From contig JAQGDQ010000194.1 in NCBI GenBank assembly GCA_030141605.1, positions 248,001 to 312,000 of the forward strand: a stretch of 64,000 nucleotides of DNA, read 5' to 3'. Below, piece after piece: positions 1 through 56,514 of this stretch. The DNA is from Tubiluchus corallicola. Taxonomy: Eukaryota > Animalia > Priapulida. The notes beneath the pieces were generated by a model that saw nothing but the letters and a program-made list of their open reading frames with translations, did no database searches and had not been told where the DNA came from. Each line of letters begins with the position of its first letter. Positions within the stretch are counted from its first letter, which is position 1. The position numbers and the translations under genes are program-made.

Positions 1-2546
1 TATAAGCAGAATTTATATAAAACATATTCTAACAAACTTAATCACATCAACCATACATCCAAAAATAAGTATTACTCTCAGATCTTGCTTGCAAACAAAA
101 ATAACATGAAACAAACTTGGCGCACTATCAATGAACTTCTCAAAATTAAAAAAAGACAGCTAGTATAATTCCAACTAAAGTTCGTTACCAAGACACAACT
201 TCATGTGACCCGCACCATAAAGCTAATGCTTTTAACAATTTTTTTGCAAACATTGGTATGTCACTGGCATCACGCATAATACAACCCGAAAACTGTAAGT
301 ATACAGACTATTTAATGCATCCCCAAGAAAATGCTTTCTATATCACACCAGTTAGCGAAATCGAGATTTCCCTCTATTGATAGACTAGATATGACATCCC
401 GATTACATATTTCAAAATGTCAAAAAACATAATTTTAACTCCGCTTACAAATCTATTTAATGCGTCAATTCTGACCGGGGCATTCCCCGACACTTTAAAA
501 CTGGCAAAAGTAATCCCCATATATAAAAAAGATGATCCAAATGAGCTGAACAACTACCGACCCATCTCACTCATATCACCCATTGCCAAAATTTTTGAGT
601 CAATCTTATATAAACGCCTGATGACATATCTAATCAAAAATGATACAATATCGTGTTTTCAATTCGGTTTCCGCAAAAATCATTCCACAATATTAGCAAC
701 TGCTGAAATCATAGACAAACTTAGACAATAAATTACTTACCTGCGGCATCTTTCTTGATTTAACAAAAGCTTTTGACACCGTTCAACACGCCATTTTACT
801 CAACAAAATGGACTATTATGGAATCGCGCAAAAACTATTCCAGTCATATCTTACGAACAGACACCAATTTACGGTAGTTGACAATTTTGCCTCCGACCTA
901 TGCCCAATACAATGTGGTGTACCTCAAGGATCCACCTTGGGTCCACTTCTTTTCCTGATATATATAAATGACCTCCCTCTTTGTACTAACATGCAAACAT
1001 GACTTTTTGCTGATGACACTAACCTCTTCTTAGCAGACAACGACACGCATAATCTGGAGCTTAGAAGTAATGAAGAACTGATCAAAATTAACACACAGAT
1101 GCGTACAAATAAGTTAACAGTAAACTATAATAAAACAAAATTTATGATCATAGGAAATAAATTTGAAAACAATGAAAACTCCATTATAACAGTATCCATG
1201 CAAGACTGTTTATTAGAACAAGTATCAGACATAAAATATCTGGGCGTCTACATAGATGACACCCTTAATTGGTCAACACACATAAAAAATATTACCTAAA
1301 AGGAAGCAAAGTTACAGGTACATTTTTTTAATTGAGGCATTACTTGAGCACGGATATACTAAAAATGATTTACTTTGCCATTGTGTACCCACACATTAAC
1401 TATTGTATCTTATCGTGGGGCACAGCAAAAAAATCTGTTCTGAAACCACTTACAGCAGCACATAACAAAATTATCAAAGCAATGACTTTTGCTGGCTTCC
1501 GAGATCATGCTACCCCTTCCTATTATGCTTTGCAATTATTAAAAATTAATGAAATTTATAAGCTTGAGTTAGCGAAATTCATGTTCAACTATAAAAAGGG
1601 CATTCTACCTAAATTATACGGCAATTATTTCAAAAAGATTAGTGACATTTACCAGTATTCTACGAGAGCAGCTACCAAACAAAACTATTTTCAGGAAAGA
1701 TTTAACACAACAAAAGGTCTACAAACTTTAAAACATAATGGTACAATACTATGGAATACTCTTTCAGATGATCTTAAGCAATCAACTAGTATCTGTCACT
1801 TAAGTAAACTATATAAATGTCAACTCTTACAAACTTATTACTGAGATTAACTACATATAAGCGTGCAGTATTTTCTAACAACTTTTATTCCTTTTGCCCA
1901 CTAATAAATTGTCTAACTGCGTGCAAGAGCAGTTACTGTTATAGCAGGTTCAATTAACTTCAATATTTAATTGTTTATTGTCTAACTTCTGTAGATTATT
2001 TTCAAAGTCTGGACTCCAATTGTCAATCTCATGCAGTCATACAGGTAATTTTTTTGTGCTTTAACTATCTGCCTATTAATTTTACCTCAGATCATCAAAA
2101 ATTTTTTTTACATTATTATGATATATTATGACTCCATTATACATTCGTTTGCTTATGTCTAACAATTATGCTTGTGTTATAAAGTAAATTTCAGTTGCCA
2201 TTGTTATTATGTTTCTGTTGTCAGATTTTTATTTCAGTTCTTATTTCAGTTATTTTCAGTTTGATTTTTTTTATATTATGCACTTAATATTACTGTGTAT
2301 GAATTGTACTAACACGTTATAAGCATATCAATTTAATGTCATTCGTAACAATTTAGTTTTTATTATAAGCAGTACTAATACACTGTAGCATAGCGCCTAT
2401 AAAAAATGTTCATCACTAACCAAAGAGCAGCTGACTAGATGACCAATTGGTCTTTCGCTGCCCTTTCTTCACATTTTTGTTACCAAATTAATTGTATTAT
2501 AACTGTGGGTGTGTTAAAAGATAAATAAAAGATTATTACTATTATC
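1..2546 (+). mobile_element. Decayed non-LTR retrotransposon (CR1/L2-group LINE): ORF2 reverse transcriptase, 3' UTR and tail
   Basis: Fragmented ORFs with RT motifs NYRPISL, QFGFR, DLTKAFDTV, GVPQGSTLGPLLFLIYINDL, FADDT, KYLGV; stops and frameshifts; AATAAA plus (ATT)-like tail at ~2521-2546; runs off the window start. Confidence 0.92.
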
Positions 2547-22075: not shown

Positions 22076-22720
22076 CTATTACCAGAATAAAAATGTGATT
22101 ATTTTAAACTGCCATTATTTTCCTCTCCAAACAAAATAGCCAAAGAGATACACTAAAGTACAGCCTAAGCACATTTTGAATGTCTACACTCAGTATGTAC
22201 CACACATAAAGAGGTTTGTTTCACCGTGACGATGATGCTGTTATTGTTGTTATTCTTCATGCAATAAGTTTTTACCAGTTTTAATACTGTGACATTACAG
22301 TAGAGTTATTTACATTGTGCAGACCCTGACACACAGTATATGCCTCAGCATGTGAAATTTAAATGTATAGCAAAAATTCAATAACAGTAATATAATTTAA
22401 ACTCAGATGTCGTTTATCAAAAGCTTTCCTGCTACTGAGTGTCATATCACGAATTTAACTCAAACATGTAAGAAGCTCAAACTTTGGACCTTCCTTAGCA
22501 AAAATATTTGTGGAAAAATTATTATGACAATTGAGGTCAGTCCCCGCCCCCATCCTATGTGCTGCGTTCCAACTCATTTTTTTAGCGGTGGCCAACAGGG
22601 TAGATGGACTTTGGACATCAGGCTTAGACTTAGACATAGACCCATTATTCTATGTTCTTACAAAAAATGGGTTTTACAATAATAACAGTGTTACATGATA
22701 CATTCACGTATATCAGCTAC

Positions 22721-22804
22721 AGTAGGGTGTATGTTCCATCTTTGGGTGATTTAATCACCTTTAATTGCCCAATCATGTCCCCCGCGCTGTGAAATGCATT
22801 GGTC
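22721..22804 (+). repeat. Left terminal inverted repeat of the Polinton-like element
   Basis: 84 bp; 6 mismatches (by eye) to the reverse complement of 33673-33756. Confidence 0.95.
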
Positions 22805-23663
22805 CAGAGTTGAGGCATTTCCCCTGTATTTTGGGTAATTGAGAGTAATTTGGGAATTAAATGGACAGTGTGGATTATTCGTGTGGGGGATGTGAAGGAT
22901 TAGGAGCCTAGCACAAGAGTGGTTAGGTACCTGCCCGGGGGTTGCGTACCCCAAATTGGGACCAATCACCCCTTTGTTGTGCAAAAATGCAACACATCGT
23001 TGATGCATAATTGCGGATTAGTAGTTGGGATAATTACTGTTTGCATGGCCCTCTAAACATGCGGAAGGGTATAATTGGGTAGTTAATGCGGCGTACTGGT
23101 GCATCTTTGCTCAACGAAGAGAGAGAGCATTGATCATATAATTATTCAACAATCGCCTCTGGGCTTATGCAGGTAGCTGCCTGTGTGTGTGTTTCTAAAA
23201 GTGAAAGTGAAATACTGTACCTAAATCATCCGCATTTCTAAACCTGTGTGCATGTGCGTGCAACCTGTCAATCAACCAGTTTGAAAGAGACTAGATACCA
23301 GAAATTGTATTTACACAAATTTTATTTATTGAAGCACCTACAATTTTATTTAGTGAAGAATCTACATACATACATTTTAACGTTACAACAATTATTAAAA
23401 ACTAGATTGATACAGATTTAATTTGATTAAAATTAACTTTATCTAGATTTTTTCCTTTTTTAAATTTTATCTTTTATCCAGACTAGATGACAAAAAAAAG
23501 AAAAGTTGCATTTACACAAATGCTTTTACAGATTTAAATAGATGAAAACTACATTTATCTAGATTTTTACTTTTTTAATTTTATGAGGTCAAAGAAAAGA
23601 AAAATTGCATCTACACTGAGTTTTTTACAAATTATGCACATTTAAACTAACAGAGACCCCTTA

Positions 23664-24110
23664 CTAACAGACTAAATAATGAGACACGAATGACATTACT
23701 TTTTTGGGAAATTCCATTTTTTTATCTTTCAAGGTGGTTCCATCATGGGGTGGTTTCGACATGGGTGGCGGAGGCATGGATGCTGCTGCTGCTGGTGGTG
23801 GTACTGCTGTAGGAGGCACCATCTGTTCATCATTATCATCCTCCACTAGCATGCGAACGTCAAAATCATCAAGATTATCGTCACCATCATTGCCAATGCC
23901 ATCATCGTGATTATCATCATCACCATCATCATCCCAAACCTCTATGCGACAATGGCAGGAACGACCTGTTTCCTGCTGATCACACGATGCAGCCTCTAAA
24001 TGGTGCTGTTCAAATCCCATAGTATGCTCTCCTCCTCTTCTCTTTCGAGTATATTGGCTACTGATTAATTTCCTGATTAACGTGCTCACCCATGAACTTT
24101 TGAAATTCAT
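23664..24110 (-). CDS. Element-borne hypothetical ORF, acidic and Pro-rich
   Basis: 148-aa ORF with Asp run and PPP tracts; AATAAA signals downstream on the minus strand (~23320); low complexity. Confidence 0.4.
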   Translation of the reverse strand: MNFKSSWVSTLIRKLISSQYTRKRRGGEHTMGFEQHHLEAASCDQQETGRSCHCRIEVWDDDGDDDNHDDGIGNDGDDNLDDFDVRMLVEDDNDEQMVPPTAVPPPAAAASMPPPPMSKPPHDGTTLKDKKMEFPKKVMSFVSHYLVC

Positions 24111-24226
24111 ATGGCTCCAGATAGATGCATCGCAATTAAAACCGCAGGATGGATTGAATTAGTACATTATGATAGAGTCTTTCACTGATAGACTCACGTC
24201 AAAAGTAGTCGTGATGCCAGACAATT

Positions 24227-24817
24227 CTAGGTCACGCTCGTCATAATGAAGGGCAGTGTATCAGTCATTATGGTAGAGTGTCTTCTCTGCCTGGGGCTGG
24301 ATAGCAATTTTCTATGGTGTTCCTGTCTTCCAATGAAATAATTGATGCAATCTTTCTTGAAGAAGAATTGCTCATATTTGTAAGGCATGAGTCTGACTTC
24401 TGGTAAAGAAGGAAAGGTTGTGTGAGCAACCACTCGTTTTTTACCAATGCAAATTTTAGTATGCAAAATTCCACCTACTGAAATATAATTGCCTCTCCCC
24501 ATGTGAATCATGAATGCTGTTTCGAACGGTGCAGATTTTGGACACTGCCCCCGTGTTTCGCTTGACATTCCCAAATGCTGCGATAAATCCTCCAATTTGC
24601 AAAGAGCAAATCGGACTTTCTGATCGATGATTGAATTGAAGATTTGCGTGGTAGTTTGAAAAAATTTATCGCGCTTCTGGAAGAGAATGCATGCATTGCC
24701 TCCCAAACAATCGCAGTTCACGTGAACCGTGAACCGGTTAGTCAATTGCCAATGAGAAAGTGCCAGAAATCTCTCATTCAGGGTACACGCATGTAATTCG
24801 CCAAACAGAGACGCCAT
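24227..24817 (-). CDS. Element-borne PC4-like (ssDNA-binding/coactivator fold) protein
   Basis: IHMGRGNYISVGG..KICIGK...FPSLPEVRLMPYKYEQF aligns by eye with the PC4 pattern IGKMRYVSV...IDIR...KPGRKGISLNPEQWSQL; a weaker N-terminal copy is possible. Confidence 0.5.
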   Translation of the reverse strand: MASLFGELHACTLNERFLALSHWQLTNRFTVHVNCDCLGGNACILFQKRDKFFQTTTQIFNSIIDQKVRFALCKLEDLSQHLGMSSETRGQCPKSAPFETAFMIHMGRGNYISVGGILHTKICIGKKRVVAHTTFPSLPEVRLMPYKYEQFFFKKDCINYFIGRQEHHRKLLSSPRQRRHSTIMTDTLPFIMTSVT

Positions 24818-26718
24818 TATATCTTTTTACAAGTGACCCATTCTAGTACCGTCAGACTGAATTCAGTACCCATTAAAACCCCCACTATGAGTACGCCATC
24901 ATCATCGCTGCTACTCACGTTGGCACTGCCCCTCGAAAGATCTGAAAAAATAACATTAATTTAAAAAATGCTTATATATATTCGTTGAAAAAAATAATAC
25001 ATATCACAAAAAAGAAACAAAGTTGTGTACAGTTAAACTCACCTCATGCTCATCCGAATTATGCCTACGTCGCACCCAAACTGTCAGATTTTCGCTATTG
25101 TAAACCTGTGTGTTTGGAACAAAACCAAATCAATTGCTGCTGGCTAAACTAGTGGTGACTGTGGTCATAGTATTGGAAGACATGATGCTGGTCTCGATGC
25201 GAGTGATTTTACATTCATCATCGTGGCTCTTTTATAAAAACAAATGTCCCCAGATAATTACAATTAGAAGGGCTTTTTTGGTACAAGTTGATGATGATGA
25301 TGCTTAATCTCATTAGCATCTGAACATTACCAAGATTCTTGCAAAGAAAATTGAATAGTTTTCTTCAAGCAGATGAAAATGAAAAAAGCTGATTAAATTT
25401 TTATCATAATTCGAGGGCACGGCAGATTTTTTCTAAATCCTATAATAATGCTCTTCAATCAGCATGCATCACAGAACAGACTAGCCTCTGTCTTTAAATC
25501 TACCCCCCCCCACACACACACACAGATGAAAAGTCATTTATTTGTGTATCCATAGCCCTGCAGGTGAATAATTAGCATTATTCAGAAACCCATTGTATTT
25601 GTTTTCCAGCATATGCTAAAATGAGATTAACTGCTATCATCGGCATCTGTCTGTGCCATCCTTGCAGGAAACGTTTCATTCATGTCTATAAACTGGAAAA
25701 CAGGCTGAGAAAATCATTTCCACTTCTGTGGCTCTAGAGTGCTAGAGAGTACACAGAGTGCTAGATAGTTAATTGTGCTTCAATCTCGTGTGAGTGTAAT
25801 TTTTCATTTTTCACTCGAGTAAATGCAACTATGTACATTGTTTGGTTAAGTACTTTAAGAAAATATGTGCGCTTTATTTTCTCTCTTAGATTGTCAAAGA
25901 AATTTTGTCTATTTTTAGATTGCCAATTTCTTTGACAGTTTTAGGAGGTAAAATATACAGAAGTCTGTTATTTTATTGTGAATTTCTTTGACAGTTTTAG
26001 GAGAAAACCGAAGAGTTCGGTGGAAGTTTTGCGGAAAATTACGCCCTAAATTTCGGTTAAGTGTAATTTTTTGATTATTTAATAGTGTGAATTGTACTCT
26101 CTTCATTGTAAATGTGTGCACTTGATTCTCTCTCTCGCCATTGTACTGTGCACATTATTCTCTCTCACTCTCTCTCTCTCTATTGTATTCTCTACACTGT
26201 GAATGTGTGCACTTTATTCTCTCTCTCAAATTGTTGCACTTAAAATTTCTTTAGTCTGTTTTAGGTAAAGAATACGAAGGGATTGGCGAAATTTTTGCGA
26301 GAAATTACGCCCTAAAATTCGAGTAAGTGCAACTTTTTCATTCTTTGATGGTGTGAATTGAACTCTCTACACTGTGGCATCTTCTCTCTCTCCTAGATTG
26401 CCAAAGAAATTTTGTCTGTTTTAGAAGATAAAAGTTTGTTGGAACATTTATGCGAATTTGCCAAATAACATTTGGTGTAAGTGTAACTTTTTCATTTTTT
26501 CATTGGTGCAAATGGAACTCTCCTTGTTTGGTGAATATACAAATTTCCCAATTGTAAATTGAGACTACTTTGTTTTAGGAGAAGAAAAATCATCAGTGTG
26601 GCATCAACGACGGCGACAGCGACAACGGTAGTGACAGCAACGATGACAATGACAGCGACGACACCTCAACTTTCTACAGCAGCTGTGTGGACGCTACCTT
26701 TGAGGAAAATAGCTGCCC

Positions 26719-26833: not shown

Positions 26834-27848
26834 ATGTTTTTCTTTAAAGGTTTGTATAAAATAAGGGAACACTCTCCAACTCACGTGATGTCAGCACCGT
26901 CACCAATATCAGCACCAGCACCAACACCGCCACCACCACCAGCATCATTACCATCAACAACAGTACCACCAACACCACCATCGTCATCCCCAACAACAGC
27001 AGCACTAGCAGCAGCAGCAACAGCAGTAGCAACAGTGATGAATGTATCGCCCATGCAACCTTCCACTAGCACGGATGAGACTCGTTCCACTTCAAATCGA
27101 CAAATTTGCCCACCCAATACGCCATCATCATTCATCCATCAAGAAAGGTTAGTAAAAAAATCTATCATTAATGTTGTGAAATGCATGTGTGTGCACGTTC
27201 CCCTGTTTACAGATGATTCGTGCTAAAACATGCTTTTTTCTCTTTTCAGTGGACACGAATTCCGTCTAGTGGACAGATGTCATAATGGCCCATTGTACAT
27301 TTGGAGGTGTCAGATTTCAGGTATAGATACAGAATGGATTTTGGATGATATTTCCAATGCCATTGAAATGTTAGGGTATGATAAGCGACGATTTTCGTCA
27401 CAACAAAAACCTCGCAAAAGGTGTTGATAGACAGGTAATTGCGACCCAGGGAAAAACTCACGAAGAGTTTTTGCAAGCATTTTCCGAACAATTGGAAATG
27501 GTGCACAAAAGCATCCGTTTAACCTCCATACGACACCACCTCTTCACTAGTCGTGCTCTCAAAAGATCACTATCTTTTTCTGGTGACAAAATATGCTGGC
27601 TATCAAAAAATTCCTCTCTACCTTATGGTCATTATTTGTTAGATCAAAGAAAACCTATTGTTTCTGCTATCACCCCTCCAGTCAGAACCCAACCTTTCTA
27701 TGGATCCGCTAACGCTGTAGAGAGACCAATATTTGTTGCCAATATCGGTGATGACGACAATGACGATGATGTTGTTGATGATGATGGCAATGACGATAAT
27801 GGTAAAATCACCATTGATGATGATCATGATGATGTCATTGTTTGGTGA
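26719..27848 (+). pseudogene. Element-borne spliced hypothetical gene (Pro/Thr/Ala-rich N-terminus, Asp-rich tail)
   Basis: ATG 26719; GT-AG introns 26726-26849 and 27148-27249 keep the frame (MPG|LYKIREH...QES|GHEFRLVD); frameshift near 27400. Confidence 0.55.
26778..26831. repeat. (TG)n microsatellite
   Basis: Direct observation; lies in a predicted intron. Confidence 0.97.
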
Positions 27849-29235: not shown

Positions 29236-29611
29236 CTATTTCTTTCTTTTTTTATCGCGGAGTGTCTTCACCATCCGAGCCATGCTGGTGGCAGCCGAAG
29301 TGGCACTAAATATGCCTGCCAAGAGTGGTATGATTGGAAATATTCAAAGAGTGGAAGGCCACACGTCTCCTGGCCTTCAGTGTGGAACCGGCACGTGCCA
29401 ATTTTCTCAGCACATTGTGCTGACCCCTCAGTACCTTTATCAGTTTGGGTTTCAACTTTACATTAGCACGTAGTATGTTAAGAGCGCATTCTGCTAAAAA
29501 ATTAACCGCATCAGTATCGGCCCACTTTAAGATCTCCCTCCGATCTCAAGGTTTGGCACAGGCCAGTTGCTTGAGAAAAGGCTTGTGATGTCTAATATGA
29601 GCTTGAGTCAT
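29236..29611 (-). pseudogene. Polinton small basic virion-protein-like ORF with hydrophobic C-terminus
   Basis: FLKQLACAKP*DRREILKWADTDAVNFLAECALNILRANVKL...VLRKLA then (frameshift) IFPIIPLLAGIFSA...KKRKK*; the ECALNIL motif is typical of the ORF directly after the Polinton ATPase. Confidence 0.7.
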
Positions 29612-29659
29612 TTTTACCACTGCTATTGGTTCGATGACTCGTGCAGCAAGTGCCATTTT

Positions 29660-30254
29660 GCTTATCTCATTTTGGGGTTGAAAAACCAATTGTGGTGCTT
29701 CGTGTTGAAATATGTTACTTCTCATGCGAATGCCATCATCGGTTTCCTGATGCAAATCGAATAGCGCGTAAGAAAAGGGTGCTGCCATGGTGCACTCGAA
29801 AGCGTCTACAAAAGATTTCGATTTACCTGGATACATTTGTCTACCCAACACTTCCACCTGCATCTTGTCGTGCAGATTTTTGAATAACACCAAGTAGCGA
29901 GTGTTTAGACTGCGCATTCTCGATTGTTTGCTCTGTTCAAAAAATTTTGCATGATGGAAACCACGAAACATGGTTTGTGGTGTACTAGCTTTATGAACAT
30001 ATCGGTCAGCCGCTTGGAAGAGGCTAATTCCGTCATCATGTCGTCCACCACCACCAGATCTCCTGTGTGTATTGCAACAATTATGCCCTCGCTGTACCAC
30101 ACTTCTCGCAATTCTTCATGAGATGAGGGTGGTGGGGGAGGTGTTTGCACAATAGAGGACTAAATTTTTTACAAGTGTTTTTTTGAGCACGACCGGGTCT
30201 GGCCACCAACATGGTGCTACCAAATTTCAATTTCACATCGTAAGTTTGCTCCAT
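29660..30254 (-). pseudogene. A32/FtsK-like DNA packaging ATPase, frameshifted
   Basis: Degenerate Walker A after STMLVA, Walker B DLVVVDDMM, IMQN, SLNTRYLVLFKN, LGRQMYPG, PFSYALFDLH, RMRSNIF, spread over three frames. Confidence 0.88.
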
Positions 30255-30406
30255 TGTAATTAACGAATAAATTAATCGGCATTCCTTTATATGTTTATCA
30301 AAAAAAAATACCACGCGGCTTACAGTAGTTGGACGTGTTCAAACGTGTTTTTATCTCACAATAGGCATTGTGTCGTATTTGAGTAATCCTTTGATTACGG
30401 CACGCC

Positions 30407-32051
30407 ATGGCGCTTTGGCGGGAAAACGATCAGATAGACAGACGCCAAGGCATCATCACATGTGCTATTGTTGGCGGCATTCTCCCATTGGTTGGCGTTA
30501 ACCGGGAGAGAGCACGTACATATTGGGGTGTTTTGGGAGAGAGTTGCCACATCTGCTTTGGATGGCGAGAGGATAGCACACAACCACATCTCTCTCGTCA
30601 CTGATGAAAACATTTCCGCAATGACGATGGAAAATGATACCATGGTGTTTCCTCTGACACAAGATTTGTCGACATCTCTTTCATCTTTAGATGAGCAGTA
30701 TCAGGTGAGTAAATCTTTATTATTTTTTCTGCTATTTTGAATAGTCGAACACTGTTTTCCTTTTTTTATTTGGTGGCAGGGGGCAGGAGCGGCAAGTACA
30801 ATGCCGATAGCGAAACATTCACTAGAGGAAAGTATGTGTCTTTGACCGTGATGGAATACTATCGGCCTCAAACGAGGAAAACACTTAAACAGATCTAGAA
30901 ATAAAACTGTCCGGCAAAACGAGTTTCCTGCTAGAAGACCCCGTGCCGCTCTTCATCTTTCCCGAACAGGCTTTGAGTCGGGAGGCCATGTTCACACTAT
31001 TGGAACCGGAAATGGTTGCCAAGATGACTGCAGCTTTAAAAATTTCACACTACTGGACGAAGGAGAAGGCAAAGTACCATCGTCATTCGGTGCCATATTT
31101 CTGTCCGGGCACACCTACATATTGATCAGTCAATGGGCATCTCACCCCAGCATAGCCATCAGACGAACAGTCGAAAGAGTGAAGAGGAAAGATGGAGACC
31201 ACAGTGCTACCACACACATTCCAACCAAACCCAGCATCAACCTCCATCTGGAGGAATACAAAAAACTGCAGGGGGAGATAGACGAAATAGTCAACGATGA
31301 GGGTTACTAAGAATGTCAGTTGTCACCGCGGCGTAGAATTGCAGTTTGGCAAGGTTTCCTCTGCATCGAGGAAGTGTCGATTATAGATGGAAAATTGATA
31401 AATGGACAGTATGCCATCATCGGTAGAAGGGGCCGCAGAATGTTGAGAGGAGCGGAGACTCGTACAGGAGAAACTGGGCAAACTGGATAGCTAGAAGTCT
31501 GCAAGCACCACAACCGCTGCTGCTGTCAACCCCACCACCACCATTGTCGACACCGCCACCAACACCAGCCCTCTGAGTAAAACCAGGCGTGGGGGAGGGA
31601 AACAATTAAACATCTTTCAGGAGAAAGATGAAGAAGAGCTTGTAGTTTCGCTGACGCCCCCTCCATCGCCCCCGCGCCTCCTGCCCCCAAAAAACCTAGA
31701 AAAATTCTGAAAGAAAGGCACATCATGTAACACGTGATGATGATGCCGATCAATAATCCTAAAACTATTGATCTTCTTCTCTTGCAGGATTTCAAACAAC
31801 CACTGGAGGATTTCAAGCAACCTCTAATCACTGTAACTCGCAAGCAACAACATCCACAGCTGAGGCAAGCGTGCAATCCTCGTAAGACTGGTAGCAGCAG
31901 GGTCATAAAAAAATACACCTTCGAAAAAAACAAGTTTCTGGAATTTGTCAACAATCACAAGCAAATCGTCAACGAGGGTAAACTGGTTCCCGATTGCGTA
32001 GAAGGGGTCGGCTGCAGTGGCGCCAGCACCATCAACGGCACAGATGTCTAA
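30407..32051 (+). pseudogene. Element-borne hypothetical genes (fragmented, one probable intron)
   Basis: Run of GC-rich ORF fragments divergent from the ATPase; CAG|GTGAGT donor at 30705, pyrimidine tract and AG at 30779; no recognised domain. Confidence 0.4.
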
Positions 32052-32400
32052 ATCGAGCATAGTTGCCTTCCAGTGTGGAAAACAAGAATACCAGGTCAAA
32101 AATTTGGTAATTTGCGAAATAGAGACCGGTACATATCACAACTACATACACTTCAAACCGCCCCACCCATGGAATCGGAGGAAATGCTCGAGTATGCAGC
32201 ATTGAACAGCATCCTACATCAGACCACCAGAGACAGGATCACCTACGTCAAGGGCGCAGAGATGTACAATTTAATCAAAAAACATTTTCCCAAAAATCAC
32301 ATAGTCATACGCGTAGAGGATCTGGAGAGTGATCATCTGGCACCCGCCATACGTTGGCAGAGCAATGGACGAGGCAGAGTGATTCGGGTGTCCGAATTGA
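32044..32400 (+). pseudogene. Putative DEDD/RNase H-fold nuclease-like ORF seen in invertebrate Polinton-type elements
   Basis: IVAFQC...YQVKNLVI....HFKPPHPW, then after a frameshift EYAALNSIL....TYVKGAEM...VIRVEDL; recalled family pattern IVD.QGF..VKELA..FKPP..W / IYVKG.EK; first acidic residues not conserved. Confidence 0.5.
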
Positions 32401-32419
32401 TTGCCAACCACGTTCTAGC

Positions 32420-32991
32420 ATGCCAATCCGGACGGTCAAAATCGTCGCCTCGACTTCGTTCTCGCAGCACTTCGATCTGAAGTAACTCCACCGGAGAGTG
32501 GGCGGAAGGCGCTACGAATGGAAACTGCAAATGCTTCTGCTAAAACGGCTGGGTGGCACACTGATGATTTTTGCCTTCGGCTCCGTGGTGACTAATGGTT
32601 TTCCCAGGAAAAAGAACTACGGAATGCGGTCGAAGAACTCTAGAAACGACTCAGACTGACACCCGCCACGAAGATTGCAGTTCGCACCATCACCGCCAGA
32701 GCTAAAATTCCCAGCAGATTGGATCTAGGTGCGCTGTACGAAAAACTTGTTCGTCCGCCACAATCGTTCACACATTCTTTTAGAGAAGTGTTTTACGAAG
32801 TGGAACTTTTTCCCAAACTAACTTGTGAATGCAAACAAATTACACTAAATATTTTTCACACTGGAAGCATGCTGATGGGTGGGACAAGCGTGAAAGATTT
32901 CTCTCGCATTTTTCTCAAATTTGTGTTTAACAGAAATAACGTTTGCTTGTATTATATGCATGATGATAATAATTTATGTACTTCACTATAG
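32420..32991 (+). pseudogene. TATA-binding protein (TBP)-like gene, both core repeats; two stops and one frameshift
   Basis: Repeat 1 VKIVASTSFSQHFDLK*LH...Y...MLLLKR..GTLMIFAFGSVVTNG versus TBP QNIVSTVNLGCKLDLK...TALIFSSGKMVCTG; repeat 2 VRTITARAKIPSRLDLGAL...FYEVELFPKLTC..KQITLNIFHTGSMLMGG versus SYEPELFPGLIY...VLLIFVSGKVVLTG. Confidence 0.85.
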
Positions 32992-33672
32992 TGACATCAT
33001 TAATCTAGCTTTAGTAACTTACGTAATTTATGTTGACAAAATGTATGTAGTTTGTAAAAAAAATTAGAAATTTTTGTAAGCTATCAATAAAAATAGCGAC
33101 ATCATTAATCTAGTTTTAGTAATTCATGTCAACACAATGTATATATTTTGCAAAAAATGTAAAAATTTTGTAATCTATCAAAAAAAATTGTGAATATGCA
33201 TTTATCAGGCTTTGTCGTTTGGACGAAATAAACCCAGGCAATTATTAAGTCGTCATTACAAAATAAATAAATAAACCCAGACAAAATTAAATCGTCGTTT
33301 ATCGACAAGCAAGGACTCATCGTTGCAACTTAAACCCAGACAATAATTAAATCGTCATTTATTAACAAATGAGGGTTTGACGACACGAGAAGAGAAGTGG
33401 TCGTGGAGAATTCACTGGTGCTGCCAGTGCCACCTCCGTAGAGACCCTGAAAAAAGATCTCCCTCATTGAGAAAGTAGGACGATTTCATTATCCTCGTCG
33501 CGGAGGGGCGGGGTGGGACAACTAGGGTTACCCAACCCCTGAGCAGGCGCCTAACCCCGGGGCAGGGTCCCTAGTTCATCCCAACCTCTCCAGCAGAATC
33601 GCTGGGTGGGTCCACTGTTCATCCTCTAATTACCAAAAAACAAAAGAAAACTAAGCCAATACAAAAAATATA

Positions 33673-33756
33673 GACCAATGCATTTCACAGCGCGGAGGAC
33701 ATAATTGGGCAATTAAAGGTAATTAAATCACCTGAAGATGGAACATACACACTACT
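33673..33756 (-). repeat. Right terminal inverted repeat of the Polinton-like element
   Basis: Reverse complement of 22721-22804, followed by TSD AGCTAC. Confidence 0.95.
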
Positions 33757-35315
33757 AGCTACAATTAAAACCAATCACACACAACATCATAGTAACTTTT
33801 TATGTGATTCATTCAGGACTAATAGTAGTCCATTTATACTTGCAATCCCACTTTAGTGAGATCACAGCACTTTCACCAAAGAAGTCATAATTCAATAACG
33901 AATTTAAACTTTGTGATTATTCAGCTTGATTTCAAATTAAGGCAAGTATAACAAACTTGCAGAATTGTTCTATCAAGTGGCATATTTTATGCAATTTTAC
34001 ACTTTAAGGCTACACAACTAAAATAGGAAATGCAGTACAAAATTTGATCACTCTGTATGACAGAAGAATCACTTGGCACAACTGACACTACAAATAACTT
34101 TTGTTTACTTTTGCTTCACTCGTATTTGATCAAAATAAGCTTCCTTCTTACATATAGTTATCATTCTCCTAGATATGAACGTTAAACAAACATATTGCTT
34201 TACAAACAGACAAATACATTTAGTTTGCTGCACTAGTCCTTACAGTGTACAGGGTGAGCAAAAATTCTTTTGCTCATTAAGGAAAATTAAATACTTGATA
34301 CTGAGAAACTTGAAAGTTGCAACATTGTGAATACGAATTCCTAGATTTTCTTTCACAAGTATCGGACAGATAATACCCTATAGGCAGCACTGTGATCAGC
34401 AGTAGCAAAAAGCTGGTATCAACAGTATCAGCATCGGCAGTCTAATACATAACAAACAATGTTATTGTACCCTTTTTGAATGCAACTACTCCACACTGAT
34501 GGATCTAACTGATATGGACCAGCATCACGGCCACTGCAGTCACCAATATTATCTTGATTTTTTTAATGGGAGTGTACAAATGACAGCATATTATTCACCA
34601 GTTCCTAACTTCACACTAAGTTCTTAATTATAAAAGCAAGGATAATAAAGACACTATATAGTACCCGAAGAAATGCTGCAGCAAGCATGGCAGAAGAAAA
34701 AGTAACATTTAGATATGTTACAGAAAACAAATGAGGCACTATGGCAAAAAAACTAAAGCTGCATTCTATGAAACAAATCTTTGTTTGTAGCTAACTGTAT
34801 TGTGTAACACATTTTTATAATCAGGAAAGGGCTATACATTGACATGGACATCACACTTGTTAAAGAATTGGTTTTCTTAAACACTGTTGCCATTTAAAAA
34901 TGCATGATGTAACTTCTTGTAAAATTTCTTGAAGCAATATTGTTGATAAAAGCAGCTCTTATGAATTTCATACCAATTATTTGCTTAAATAAGTTTGATA
35001 TGTTTTATTTATGCAACTTCTATGCAAGCTGCTTTTAAACCATATTAACCTATTCAAAATCTTCCTTTTAGACAGTGAGCCTTCATTTAATGTTTTTTGA
35101 CATGAACCACCTCACTGACTGATGAACAACTTACACGTTTCATTGCCTGAGTGTAATAATGAATAACAACAAATTTTCAACACCAATTGCAGTCTACAGG
35201 TACATTTTGTAGATACAGGACAGTCTACACTTCAACATTTTGTACATACTTTAACAGCAAGTGTTATAAAAATAAACCTTGAATTTATCTTCATAAAGTG
35301 ATACAAAATTCGAAC

Positions 35316-42960: not shown

Positions 42961-45041
42961 GAATTCTGAAGCTATGGTACTGTGTCAATAGCATACAAAT
43001 AAATTTAAGATTAAAATTCTACTGTACTGGAAAGCTAAACAAAAATGTAAAGTTAATGGTAAAAAACTCATTTAAAACATAAGCTTTAAGATTCTTGCAA
43101 CACCATATATTGTAATACAGTTACAGTAGTATTAAAATGAATATGAATATTACATAGTTGAGTTTCTGTGTATGTTATTTTACCAACATCTCATTATCCA
43201 TTTTACTAACATCCTGCTGTCTTTGTAGGATGTGTATCTTTATAAGAAATAAAGAAATGATAATAATAATTATTATTATATAACCACTATACACCTCCCA
43301 CGTAAAATGGAAACATAGAAAAGGTGCAAATGAAATTGACTAGATAGAAGCAGTCTTTCTGGCGGCCATCCAGTTCGGGTCTGAGCTCTCAATTACTGCT
43401 GCCAAGCACACATTACGATCACTCAGCCATTCTACAACCATATTATCTACTAGGGGTAAAACTTGGGGACTTCAACAAAGCTTAGTTTTAGGGGGATCCT
43501 GTATAGTGATTGTAGCCAAGAAGCGGTACCAAAGAACAAGTCTCTCAGTAAAATTTAAAAAAGTGGATATTGTTCTGATGATTGGAATCCTGAATTTGCA
43601 AGATACTGTTCCGATCATCGGAACCCGTGAACTTCGCTACGCACAATTCAAATAATCAAAAACTTGATAATCTTCCCATAACCAGGATTAGAGCTAAACT
43701 ATACATGCAGTACTCGAATGACCTTCCACTTGAACGGGCACCAACACCAAAAGTGCTCATAGCACTTTTATTTGGAACAGTCAACAGAAAATGCTGCTGC
43801 CCAACCTATGTATGCACAAATCATCGGCATACATTTTGACAAGAGAGCCAATGGGTATAGATTTTCTAAAACTTAAAATAATGTCTGGTGTGAAAACATT
43901 TGATATTTGTGCAGTTTTACACCAGCTTTGCTGATAGCTAACAAAGCATAGTAAAGCGCTACTTAAACCAACCACACCCCTCTCCAGAAGTAGAAGTGCT
44001 GGTCTGCTGTTACAAACAGTGAGGTGTCGCTGGAAAAAAATTGCCTGAGAACAAAACATTGAGAAATGGGTGAGAAGTTGTGGGTTTCGTTATTTTAGAA
44101 AATATCTTTTAGAAGATAAGACGGTATCTTCTATTTTAGAGAATATATTTTAGAAGATACGATAAAACACAGTGAAAACCATAAAGGACTCATGTAAAGA
44201 GAGAAAAAATGTAAATTTAATTCAGATTTTAGCTTATTTAGAACTCTCAAAATTAACTCAACAGTATTTATCTAAACCACTAGCATAAGCCATAGCATAT
44301 ATATGTCAAGCTAATAATTACAGAAATGCTCGATTTACTGAAAAGTTTGTTTCAGCTTTAAAGAACACAAAAATTGAGTTACATTTTTTACAAAGTTTCC
44401 TGAAAGTTAGTTGCTACAAAGTTTTAACATTAACTACATTAAAATGCTTATCTGCACCCAAAAGAGAATATTTTGCTCTATCGAAAATTTGATTTTATGA
44501 AAAGCTATTGAGACACACTTGTTCCTCGTCGAAAACATGCTTAGTCAGCATTATTATTTTATATTGCAACATAGTTCTTTGTTTATCAGCTGTTCAGGCA
44601 CCTTCGGTACAGTAACAATAGCAGTCTAGTTAGGCTCGATTTTTGTTGCAAGCTGCAGAGCTGGAATTATGTTGCTAGGTCCCGTCTGCACGAATTTTTC
44701 TGAATTAAAAATTTCATTTTTTATTTTTTTTTTAATTCATCCTATTCTGCTAGATATCTGCTACACTAAGTTTTTGGGGGTATGTCTAGTGGTATGGTTT
44801 GGAAAACTTTGTATAATCCCATTTGTGATTATCGGAAATTTATCCTTCGGAAATGTGATTGCTATCATCGGAATAATAGCTCTCGGAAACACAGTTCTGA
44901 TCATCGGAACAATATCCACTTCCAAAATTTAATTATTTTTCTTTATTTATCTGTTTTTCTACTACAACATCGTTTAATAAAATGTCAACTAGTAGTAATT
45001 TCAACGTTTATGTAAACGTAAATTGAAATTCTAAAAATTAC

Positions 45042-45191
45042 CTAAACAGAATGAATCATCTGCTTTTTTTAAAAGTACCCTTCCACTTTTCGATGCACAT
45101 TCTAATAAGCACAAATTATCATATCTGCGTCTGTCAGTTCCACAAACTGGATCCTTTGTTTCAGGACACTTACATAAATACTTTTCCTTCT
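45042..45191 (-). CDS. Exon 6: Kazal domain (subtype A)
   Basis: gattttAG / GTAATT, 150 nt, phase 1-1; CKCPETKDPVCGTDRRRYDNLCLLECASKSGRVLLKKADDSFC. Confidence 0.92.
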
Positions 45192-45959
45192 CTAAAATCA
45201 AGAAAACAAAGAAAACTTTAGTACAAGTCAAAGAATAAAAACAGTGATCACTCATATTTAAAATTTCCCAATCAATGCTAGGCACAATATTTAGCACCTG
45301 CTTATATTGTATTGTAGTGGCAGCGTAGCTGTGACGGAAGCCGACTTGCAATTTATAATGCATGATTTAGTTTTTCCCGGGACAGATATAACTATCCATC
45401 TACCTACACATAACTGGGATAGATACTTGTAGATTCGTGCTGTATGAATGAAATCGCTCAAATGATGTGAGACAAATACGTGAGACAAATACATAACAGA
45501 TTAAATGGCAACATTTCACCAGATCAAGCTGCATATAGGGAGAGACAAAACACTACTGAACTTGAAATGCATGCAGAAATTAAAATTACAAACTTGTATT
45601 CCATTTTTTCAGATTTTGTATTTTTATCAGTGCTCAAAACATTAATAGAACTTTTAAAACTCACTCTTCAATTATAATGGAGTCAGCTTTATTATACCTT
45701 AAACACGTGTATACCACAATCTTTAACAGAACAATTATACCAAGCATTGATATACTAAAAAGTTATTTCATCGATAGCACTTATCTGTGCTAGATAAGTG
45801 TCACAGAACTTGATGTGGAAAGGTTCGCATACTTAAAGAGAGGTAATAAGTGTTGCCTTAAAAATCTGAACAGAAAAGGAAAACTTATTATGTCACAGGA
45901 TACAAACACAAATTTGAAAAAAATTGGCGAGTCTAAGAAGTAAATACAGTTAATAATAA

Positions 45960-54407: not shown

Positions 54408-56514
54408 CCGTGTTTATTCGAGTATAATGCGTAAAATTTTCTACCTAAAAAAAACTCAAAAGTTTGTGTGCACGTTATACACGAGGGCTGGGGTGACACG
54501 CTTAGATGTATCAATGTATTATTTGTGCAATGACTCATTAGTCGAAGATATCGCTGACCACAATCACAGAACATTGAATGTAGCCACATCTCTTGCCCCA
54601 CAAATCGCCAATGGTCTATTTTTAGTAACAGTATCCAAAGCACTTGCGTGGACGATCTAAAATAAATATTTCTCAATGGCTCATGTGCAACACTCACTGC
54701 AGAGGTGAGGCGTAGCTAAGGAAATAATCAATAATATTTGCGTCATTAGCAGACTTTGTCAGACGGTGCAATTTCCAAGAATTCTTATTATCCGCTGTGA
54801 TGTATTGCTTGTTGATTGTATATATATTGTTTATGTATTAGCAGTTGATTGTTTCCTCGCCTCGCCTCGCCCACACTGCAACATGAGTCTAAGCATTGCA
54901 TGTTTTGCACAATTACCAATAAGGTTTCAATTCAGTGTTCTTTACATTTTTATTTACTGGTATATACCCGGTAGATGGCAACTTGGGGTATCAAGAAAAA
55001 AACGTTCTGCATATGACGCTTCATTCAAGCTCAAAGTTGTTGATCATGCTGAAATTCATGGAAATCGAGCAGATAGCCGAGAATTCACTGTACCAGAGAC
55101 GAATGTTAGAGACTGGAGAAAACAGAAAGTCGTCCTTAAAGATATGAATAAAACCAAAAAAGCACAACTAGGGAGTCAAGCCATGCACCCAGATATGGAG
55201 AAGGAACTTTGTGAATGGATCACTGATCAAAGAAATAGTGGGTACATCGTCACAATGCTCCACATTAGGCTTCAAGCTCCAAAGTTTTGCAAATATTCAA
55301 CCTTCCAAGCCTCTAATGGATGGACACAGAAGTTTATGAAGAGGCATGGACTTGCAATACGCCGGACAACAAAGATATCACAGAAGCTGCCAAGTTATTT
55401 AGAAGAGAAGATTACTTCAAACCATATAATCAAACCTTTATAATCAACCAACGCAAGCAGAATAACTTCCAAACTCGCACAGATAGGCAATATGGATAAG
55501 ACCCCATGTGTTTTGACCTACCAGGCAACAGGACAATTAATAGCAAAGGGAAGCACATAGTCCAGATTAAGACCACAGGCCATGAGAAGACTCATTTTAC
55601 GGTTCTATTACCCTGTATGGCAGACGGTTTTAAACTTACACACATGGTGATTTTTAAAAGAAAGACTATTCCAAAAGGAGAGAAATTCCCACCAGGTGTC
55701 GTGATCCACTGTCATCCTAAAGGATGGGTGGACGAGAAGGGCATCATTTTATGATTAAAAAAAAGTTTGGAATACTAGACCAGGCAGAAATCCATGAAGA
55801 AATCCATGCTTGTATGGGACCAATTCTGCTCACACCTGACAGACACTGTTAAGGACAGGCTGAAAAGTCTAAAAACATCTCAAGCTGTGATTCCAGGTGG
55901 ACTAACCTCTATTCTTCAGCCACTGGATGTTGTTTTAAACAAAACCTTCAAAGACAGAGTCAGAGAGAAGTGGATTACCTGGATGAAATCCGACGACAAA
56001 GAATTGACAGCAGGAGGAAACCTCAAGAAACCTGGCCTATCTCTCGTGACATCCTGGATTAAAACATCATGGGAAGACATGCCAAAAGCAATGATCATCA
56101 AGAGATTTTTAAACACAGGCATCAGCAATAAAACGGATGGCACAGAAGACGACCTGCTGTGGGATTCAGACTCAGAAGAAAGTGAAAAAACTGAAGAAAC
56201 ATATGTTCCTGCCAACTGCTACACTGATGATAAATTGACTCAAGAAGAATGGGCACAACTCTTTGGCGTATCTGATGATGAATCAGACTTTGAAGGATTT
56301 TAAATAAATACTGTAAATTTTATTTCGGTATTGTGTTCATAGTTCACCTTACGTTGTCAATAAATGATTTTTATCATGGCCGCAAGTGTTCAACAAAGTT
56401 TACAATGCTTGGTCTGAGCCGAGAAAAAGTGAAACGAAATTTTATACCGATTTTTAATCGAAAATTAGGGGTACGCGTTATACACGGGTGCGAGGTATGC
56501 GCGAATAAATACGG
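54408..56514 (+). mobile_element. pogo-family (Tc1/mariner superfamily) DNA transposon with disrupted transposase
   Basis: TA|CCGTGTTTATTCG ... CGAATAAATACGG|TA TIRs; Brinker-like DBD (RSAYDASFKLKVV), CENP-B HTH (FQASNGW..FMKRH), DDE_1 (NMD, LVWDQF..H, LQPLDV) split over three ORFs. Confidence 0.93.

Follow-up and report, generated by a model that had tools for sequence, protein, structure and literature searches.

Does an animal Polinton carry its own TATA-binding protein (TBP), and what would such a protein do? The question is raised by a stretch of 64,000 nt from the priapulid Tubiluchus corallicola (contig JAQGDQ010000194.1, positions 248,001 to 312,000; hereafter, the window). A preliminary description of this DNA proposed that a Polinton-like element encodes a compact two-repeat TBP core of about 190 codons, broken by two stops and a frameshift, which may have served as the promoter-recognition factor of the element.

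The broken TBP gene and the element around it

Our analysis bears out this reading of the gene structure: positions 32420-32991 hold a broken two-repeat TBP gene, and no working protein can come from this copy. When its 3 breaks, i.e., a TAA at 32483-32485, a frameshift within 32596-32617 and a TAG at 32641-32643, are read as X, the plus strand from 32420 to 32988 yields 190 residues, followed by the terminal stop, TAG 32989-32991. The Pfam TBP profile (PF00352) matches both halves of the gene, collinearly, as two tandem repeats, with repeat 2 (28.9 bits) exceeding the cut-off of 22.9 and repeat 1 (18.6 bits) falling under it. As a control for chance matches, the six frames of the 64 kb were searched with an HMM made from 60 other alignment rows, excluding the window and its relative P0003. 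In this control, which is partly circular because the searches that supplied the rows had started from the window ORF or its matches (the Pfam profile is independent), the two TBP halves ranked 1st and 2nd, with 73.6 bits at profile positions 68-169 and 17.1 bits at positions 4-69, again collinear, and the best score among 20 codon-shuffled windows was 13.2; an HMM of 17 canonical-looking TBPs alone gave 47.6 and 10.2 bits vs 6.3 in the control. The sole long stop-free frame is that of repeat 2 (32644-32988, 115 aa), and only this repeat had appeared in the initial list of ORFs. The first stop is no assembly error because an identical 474-nt contig from a second study carries it (X3 record 21, 0 differences). 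The likeness to P0003 stops near 32949, and therefore the last ~13 codons may be read-through.

The gene lies among the following features; the reference for the Polinton genes was L002, an IMG/VR contig (1-12321) with a near-complete Polinton core set, namely, pPolB, ATPase, integrase, capsids and protease (all named by eye except for the ATPase):

22715..22720, plus strand: left target-site duplication, 6 bp, identical to 33757-33762
22721..22804, plus strand: left terminal inverted repeat (TIR), AGTAG end, 84 bp, 92.9% identical to the right arm
27405..27650, plus strand: probable C-terminal remnant of the protein-primed PolB (tblastn with L002 pPolB, 29% over 83 aa, E=0.03, weak)
29360..29611, minus strand: small conserved Polinton ORF that comes after the ATPase, broken (tblastn with the L002 counterpart, E=1e-6)
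29660..30254 (3' end approximate), minus strand: packaging ATPase (A32/IVa2-like), frameshifted (tblastn with the L002 ATPase)
30284..30291, minus strand: candidate canonical TATA box TATAAAGG, seen in the sequence 37 nt ahead of the ATPase ATG
31113..31307 (ORF to 31460), plus strand: piece of a PC4-like ORF, broken, a lead only (ESM Atlas)
32044..32480, plus strand: upstream element ORF, frameshifted, overlapping the TBP start by 61 nt
32420..32602, plus strand: TBP repeat 1 (N-lobe strands; Pfam TBP E=0.0017; 62% to P0003 residues 1-29), with the stop at 32483-32485
32596..32991, plus strand: helix 2 and TBP repeat 2, in a different frame (Pfam TBP E=1e-6; 52% to P0003 residues 24-143)
32988..33188, plus strand: AT-rich 105-bp tandem duplication behind the TBP gene (76% over 107 columns; repeat family D19)
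33673..33756, minus strand: right TIR, CTACT end, 84 bp, 92.9% identical to the left arm
33757..33762, plus strand: right target-site duplication, 6 bp, identical to 22715-22720

The inverted repeats and the perfect duplication enclose the TBP gene, as had been described. Polintons (Mavericks) have TIRs with AG...CT ends and a 6-bp target duplication, and ends of this type are present here (AGTAG...CTACT plus the duplication), delimiting an element of 11,036 bp; the likeness of the TIRs extends beyond the 84 bp to about 91 nt at 90% and, weakly, out to about 240 bp. The ATPase is 43% identical to that of L002 over 119 columns (E=6e-24), with a second piece in a different frame, and the L002 protein itself matches Pox_A32 and Adeno_IVa2 in Pfam. 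The TBP gene is the last one ahead of the right inverted repeat, behind the PC4-like piece, which starts 1 kb upstream, and the upstream ORF, the tight packing with which is confirmed by the overlap of the frame at 32169-32480 with the TBP ATG. For the PC4-like piece, the top three ESM Atlas matches are PC4 clusters (best 0.89, 182/256 features) and there is no Pfam match; a PC4-like ORF is also encoded by L002 (Pfam E=0.0034). PC4 is a Pol II coactivator and a single-strand DNA binder. The upstream ORF has no useful Pfam match, and the ESM Atlas offered only an implausible PEP-utilising lead; a reading of this ORF as a DEDD exonuclease received no support from either source.

Only 3 of 11 L002 proteins match the window (the ATPase, the small ORF and, weakly, PolB), the other 8 matching nothing; in particular, none of the 4 queries for integrase, protease, and major and minor capsid proteins gave a tblastn match at E<=0.05. 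Thus, the description of a Polinton-like element stands as far as the TIRs, the 6-bp duplication and the ATPase are concerned and falls short in that integrase, protease and capsid genes are undetectable: as judged by its gene content, this is a deleted, dead Polinton-derived copy and not a complete element. With Polintons/Mavericks (adintoviruses) such as L002, it shares the TIRs, the duplication, the order of the ATPase and the small ORF, the candidate PolB remnant and the PC4-like ORF. Unlike L002, the window element is 11.0 kb long, lacks the matches just listed and has a TBP gene. There is no TBP among the 14 ORFs of L002, which has the full core set, and therefore the TBP gene is dispensable. 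No TFIIB gene was detected by Pfam in the six frames of the element, in a scan of this deleted copy that also missed the TBP repeats.

Several minor traits of the element can be added. The PolB remnant (27405-27650, plus strand) and the ATPase block (29360-30254, minus strand) are convergent, whereas in L002 they are arranged head to tail. Short introns with GT...AG ends are apparent by eye in element ORFs, at 30707-30780 (plus strand) and near 25043 (minus strand). The left arm contains two ORFs of 164 and 199 codons at 23667-24826 (minus strand), one with acidic and proline-rich runs, neither with a useful Pfam match.

Relatives of the gene and its standing in a Polinton family

A HMMER profile search over 1.84 billion protein representatives (E<=0.001) retrieved 59 proteins, 58 of them TBP-like by eye and many consisting of a bare core of 165-190 aa; only 1 of the 30 that were looked up carries a usable name. 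Word-index protein searches found P0003 as the sole relative. In IMG/VR, one search gave three relatives, and no TBP locus was found, apart from a spurious 18-residue match (L001; 0/330 and zero motif matches in further scans). A metagenome scan returned a single spurious phage protein (L003), and the phage collection contained no TBP match. The alignment does not include P0015 (a repeat protein, false match), P0027 (a fragment), P0001, P0002 and the cluster members P0062-P0065. One of the relatives, P0022, is a divergent TBP of 187 aa that bears a UniRef name from the nematode Panagrellus redivivus and may be an element gene annotated as a host TBP.

With P0003, the window gene shares 57% identity over 136 columns; with P0004, P0005 and P0008, which are mini-TBPs of 165-173 aa, it shares 22-29%. 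Its identity to four insect TBP-family proteins, the rows of which are named TBP and, we presume, are TRF1-like, is 18-19%, and that to five other cellular-looking TBPs is 24-26%; P0003, in turn, shares 23-26% identity with human TBP chains. A careful tree was built from 27 of the 62 rows; its branches are long. In it, the window gene and P0003 form a pair (support 99/98) that joins P0004, P0005 and P0008 (97/92), and this five-row mini-TBP clade is separate both from rows labelled by eye as nucleocytovirus-like and from the clade of canonical eukaryotic TBPs (98/96). A quick tree of all 62 rows recovered the same five-row group (SH-aLRT 92). The approximately unbiased (AU) test rejects a grouping of the window gene and P0003 with three insect rows (p=0.0012) and does not reject an old origin from eukaryotic TBP (p=0.41).

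These results bear on the simplest competing explanation, that a processed pseudogene of a host TBP or TRF landed, just once, in the element. The gene is indeed intronless, broken and devoid of an N-terminal extension, as expected of a pseudogene, and its origin from a eukaryotic TBP, if old, is compatible with the AU test. However, its insect homologs are far less similar to it than P0003 is, their grouping is rejected, P0003 itself is distant from human TBP, no poly(A) tail is seen behind the gene, and siblings of high sequencing depth, described below, keep the gene order. On the insect and human proteins compared, we therefore regard this explanation as largely refuted and extremely improbable. 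The sequence comparisons argue that the window gene is no recent host retrocopy, in agreement with the early impression that it is too divergent for one (18-26% to the cellular TBPs compared), and place it in a distinct, supported clade instead of nesting it within the animal TBP/TRF proteins compared.

P0003 and the contig depth carry the argument from one copy to a family. P0003 (145 aa, on one 1.9-kb contig) matches PF00352 in 2 stretches (E=1.9e-15) and is a single open frame across the frameshift and the second stop of the window gene, both frames of which it matches; it starts within repeat 1 and so does not cover the first stop. Contigs from four runs (two samples, two studies) were aligned to the window at 85% likeness. 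The summed contig depth, which is not equivalent to copy number and to which free virus or another organism could contribute, was 13,220 (X1), 649, 432 (X3) and 397 in the TBP bin and, in the same order of runs, about 180-280, 13-26, 1-40 and 1-9 in the neighbouring unique bins, with the ATPase and PC4-like bins rising along with that of TBP. On an X3 contig with a depth of 536 (record 22), the final part of the upstream ORF is followed by both TBP repeats, as in the window, with about 86% likeness in the first piece; the contig aligned outside 32603-32672, the region of the frameshift and the second stop, and the two indels among the differences listed for repeat 2 are both multiples of three. 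At 85% likeness, the block from the ATPase to TBP is tens of times deeper than the two inverted repeats and the leftmost 4 kb of the element (22721-26700; 32908-33756), which stay at background depth.

The abundant family, then, is either a sister of the window copy that has different ends or else a free virus. The gene is not a one-off copy absent from siblings, as the high-depth contigs keep the gene order and P0003 is open: TBP is an accessory gene carried at the family level by a Polinton lineage and no one-off passenger. We infer that P0003, P0004, P0005 and P0008 are Polinton genes as well.

Predicted fold, residue pattern and the proposed role of the intact protein

The fold was predicted for two relatives of the broken window gene, P0003 and P0004. 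The AlphaFold2 model of P0003 (pLDDT 92.6) matches solved TBPs with a TM of up to 0.74 in Foldseek, where there are 43 PDB matches (E<=0.001) and each of the 39 listed is a TBP chain; the model of the full-length P0004 (pLDDT 96.0) reaches a TM of 0.88. Both match solved TBPs at 19-28% identity. Structure prediction thus agrees with the profile matches, and these relatives are predicted to adopt the saddle fold of the TBP family.

We compared the five clade rows (the window gene, P0003, P0004, P0005 and P0008) with cellular TBP/TRF (PF00352; yeast 1rm1/1ytb, human 1cdw), using yeast TBP numbering. Shared with the cellular proteins are the two-repeat saddle, 3 of the 4 intercalating Phe (F116, F190 and F207 in the window gene), P191 and the acidic C-lobe stirrup, E186 and E188. 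These two Glu residues, F190 and P191 are kept in 5/5 rows, a conservation that is inflated among the matches by a search profile favouring rows with the YE.E.FP motif; F116 and F207 are Phe in 4/5 rows and Tyr in the fifth. On the side of differences, the window gene is, apart from its low identity, devoid of the N-terminal extension and of the F99 loop: in the window gene, P0004 and P0005, the alignment has no residue at the F99 position, which lies outside P0003 and is doubtful in P0008, and the loop is a shortened turn in the P0004 model. N159, V161, G192, L205 and K120 are changed in 5/5 rows, N159 always to Thr or Ser. N69 is Lys in the decayed window copy and Asn in 3/3 full-length relatives. 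Thus, neither the four intercalating Phe nor the two central Asn (N69, N159) of canonical TBP are complete in the window gene. In both the window gene and P0003, I194, V203 and L205 read Thr, Thr and Asn, respectively; these are the positions of the altered-specificity mutant TBPm3 (PMC1636458). The linker is 29-30 residues long in the clade vs 34 in canonical TBP, with helix 2 shorter by 4-5 residues; by a crude count, it contains 7 Lys and Arg in the window gene and 2-4 in the four relatives vs 8-9 in two canonical rows. In canonical TBP, the basic patch of the N-lobe serves TFIIA, TAF1, Brf1, NC2 and Mot1. An insert of 7-10 residues precedes the C-lobe stirrup in the window gene and P0003.

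According to a survey of viral TBPs (PMC7221094), TFIIB and Brf (Brf1, Brf2) are bound through the two acidic positions of the stirrup, the first of these positions is ~40% conserved in viral TBPs, almost all viruses with a TBP encode their own TFIIB, and viral TBP N-lobes are without the signature of host regulators. The residue pattern of the Polinton clade fits a promoter factor that would use the host TFIIB. We lean, with somewhat better than even confidence and from the sequence, towards the intact protein having been such a factor of the element, one that would bind element promoters and recruit host TFIIB and Pol II, probably for the packaging and capsid genes. The three kept Phe would insert into the minor groove and bend an AT-rich element promoter; binding would proceed via the C-lobe, and the base-facing strands, with their polar residues, suggest that TATA would be read in an altered or relaxed manner; host TFIIB, followed by Pol II, would dock on the acidic stirrup; and the trimmed N-lobe might allow escape from control by TFIIA, TAF1, NC2 and Mot1. 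Late timing is suggested by analogy with herpesviruses and with coral polintoviruses, the capsid genes of which form an expression cluster of their own (PMC11131425).

The sole late-type promoter left in this copy, that of the ATPase, carries an ordinary TATA box that host TBP could read, and no shared motif was seen by eye ahead of 11 start positions (4 of them off ATG; the capsid genes are missing here). On both strands at 25229-25240, TATA words are found in the left arm ~55 nt ahead of a minus-strand ATG. Against the role of a promoter factor, then, stand the ordinary TATAAAGG at the ATPase, the lack of a visible shared motif and the existence of L002 without TBP, along with the loss of the F99 loop and of N159, which could weaken or alter the binding of DNA. 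The early proposal of an own promoter-recognition factor accordingly holds up in part: the gene is a real family gene of predicted TBP fold with TFIIB-compatible residues, and the only late-type promoter left has a canonical TATA box.

The same observations can be turned into a different role, in which the mini-TBP is a decoy: by tying up host TFIIB or Brf, or by sitting on host promoters, it would dampen transcription of the host instead of switching on genes of the element. No surface is better kept than the TFIIB stirrup (5/5), an intercalating Phe is missing along with the Asn of the C-lobe, and the box at the ATPase needs no private reader. Nevertheless, three aromatic intercalators and P191 remain, and base-facing changes of the same kind recur in 5/5 rows, which points to a retuned rather than a relaxed DNA face, so that we consider a decoy unlikely. 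The position of the gene, last ahead of the right inverted repeat and clustered with the PC4-like ORF, would suit an architectural DNA bender that acts in replication, integration or packaging at the AT-rich element ends, possibly with the PC4-like protein; such a bender, however, does not need the acidic TFIIB stirrup that is kept in 5/5 rows, and to this role, too, we assign only a small chance. Finally, the stirrup could recruit host Brf1 or Brf2, making the protein an RNA polymerase III adapter for small element RNAs. According to the survey, Brf1 and Brf2 contact the same Glu positions, but Brf1 also uses a basic patch of the N-lobe (PMC7221094), and here helix 2 is shorter by 4-5 residues and the intact relatives have few Lys and Arg (2-4 vs 8-9); we regard an adapter as quite unlikely.

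The promoter factor might go further: some animal Polintons could hold a one-protein switch, that is, a minimal, retuned TBP that ignores the regulators of host TBP, reads an element-specific box and docks host TFIIB directly, setting an early-to-late programme. We put this forward tentatively, with less than even confidence. If true, a virus of <20 kb would achieve with one protein the kind of programme that takes six proteins in herpesviruses and, in giant viruses, a TFIIB of their own.

Viral TBPs already known and the interest of a Polinton TBP

Viral TBPs are a known kind. The TBP-like proteins of nucleocytoviruses (Moumouvirus, Heterosigma virus, asfarvirus B263R) share with the window gene the viral TBP fold and a diverged N-lobe, according to the survey (PMC7221094); they fall in a separate clade and mostly pair with their own TFIIB, often without the acidic stirrup in the proteins covered there, whereas the window clade keeps both Glu. 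ORF24 of KSHV, the vTBP of beta- and gammaherpesviruses, is likewise a viral mimic of TBP; its DNA face is more polar, and it directs host Pol II to TATT-type late promoters (PMC12529657). It is our working model for the role of a Polinton TBP. ORF24 carries an additional C-terminal domain that binds DNA, acts as part of a complex of six proteins and retains four Phe without the TFIIB-binding acidic residues (PMC12529657); by contrast, the window gene is a bare core with both Glu.

A precedent in print comes from the MELD viruses, midsize DNA viruses related to Polintons, with an adintovirus-like PolB; a TBP is labelled for them in the legend of Fig. 5 (Starrett et al. 2021, PMC8502044; preprint 10.1101/697771). 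The likeness, a TBP-like gene in such a virus, is one of labels only, as the text covered gives the legend label alone, does not name the element and is free of residue, phylogeny or role analysis; one supplement of this paper does not mention TBP or TATA. Because the MELD virus TBP has already been labelled in print, the novelty of our finding is lowered. Neither term occurs in the main text of PMC10748475, PMC8097293, PMC11161782, PMC11131425 or 10.64898/2026.10.13.758929, the supplements of which could list such genes, and the main text of PMC12220804 gave only a false match in its reference list. In the literature covered, from which subscription journals are mostly absent, we found no paper devoted to Polinton TBPs.

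The window copy is a fossil and matters for what it tells about the family. According to PMC8097293, no virions had been seen for animal Mavericks, and a further question is how Polintons time their genes. A TBP kept by selection across a family would speak for a programmed viral cycle over leaky transcription and would offer a concrete handle on it, consisting of one small protein, one predicted partner (host TFIIB) and one promoter box to find. The mini-TBPs may also serve as a naturally occurring collection of TBP cores with altered specificity.

Elsewhere in the window, the transposon content and an exon of a Kazal inhibitor at 45034-45363 (minus strand), of the invertebrate type and most like insect rhodniin (E=2e-10), point to an animal host, with the exon as the main hint of an invertebrate. 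We also noticed a broken pogo/Tc5-type DDE transposase at 54883-56303 (plus strand), and a reverse transcriptase fragment at 417-731 (plus strand).
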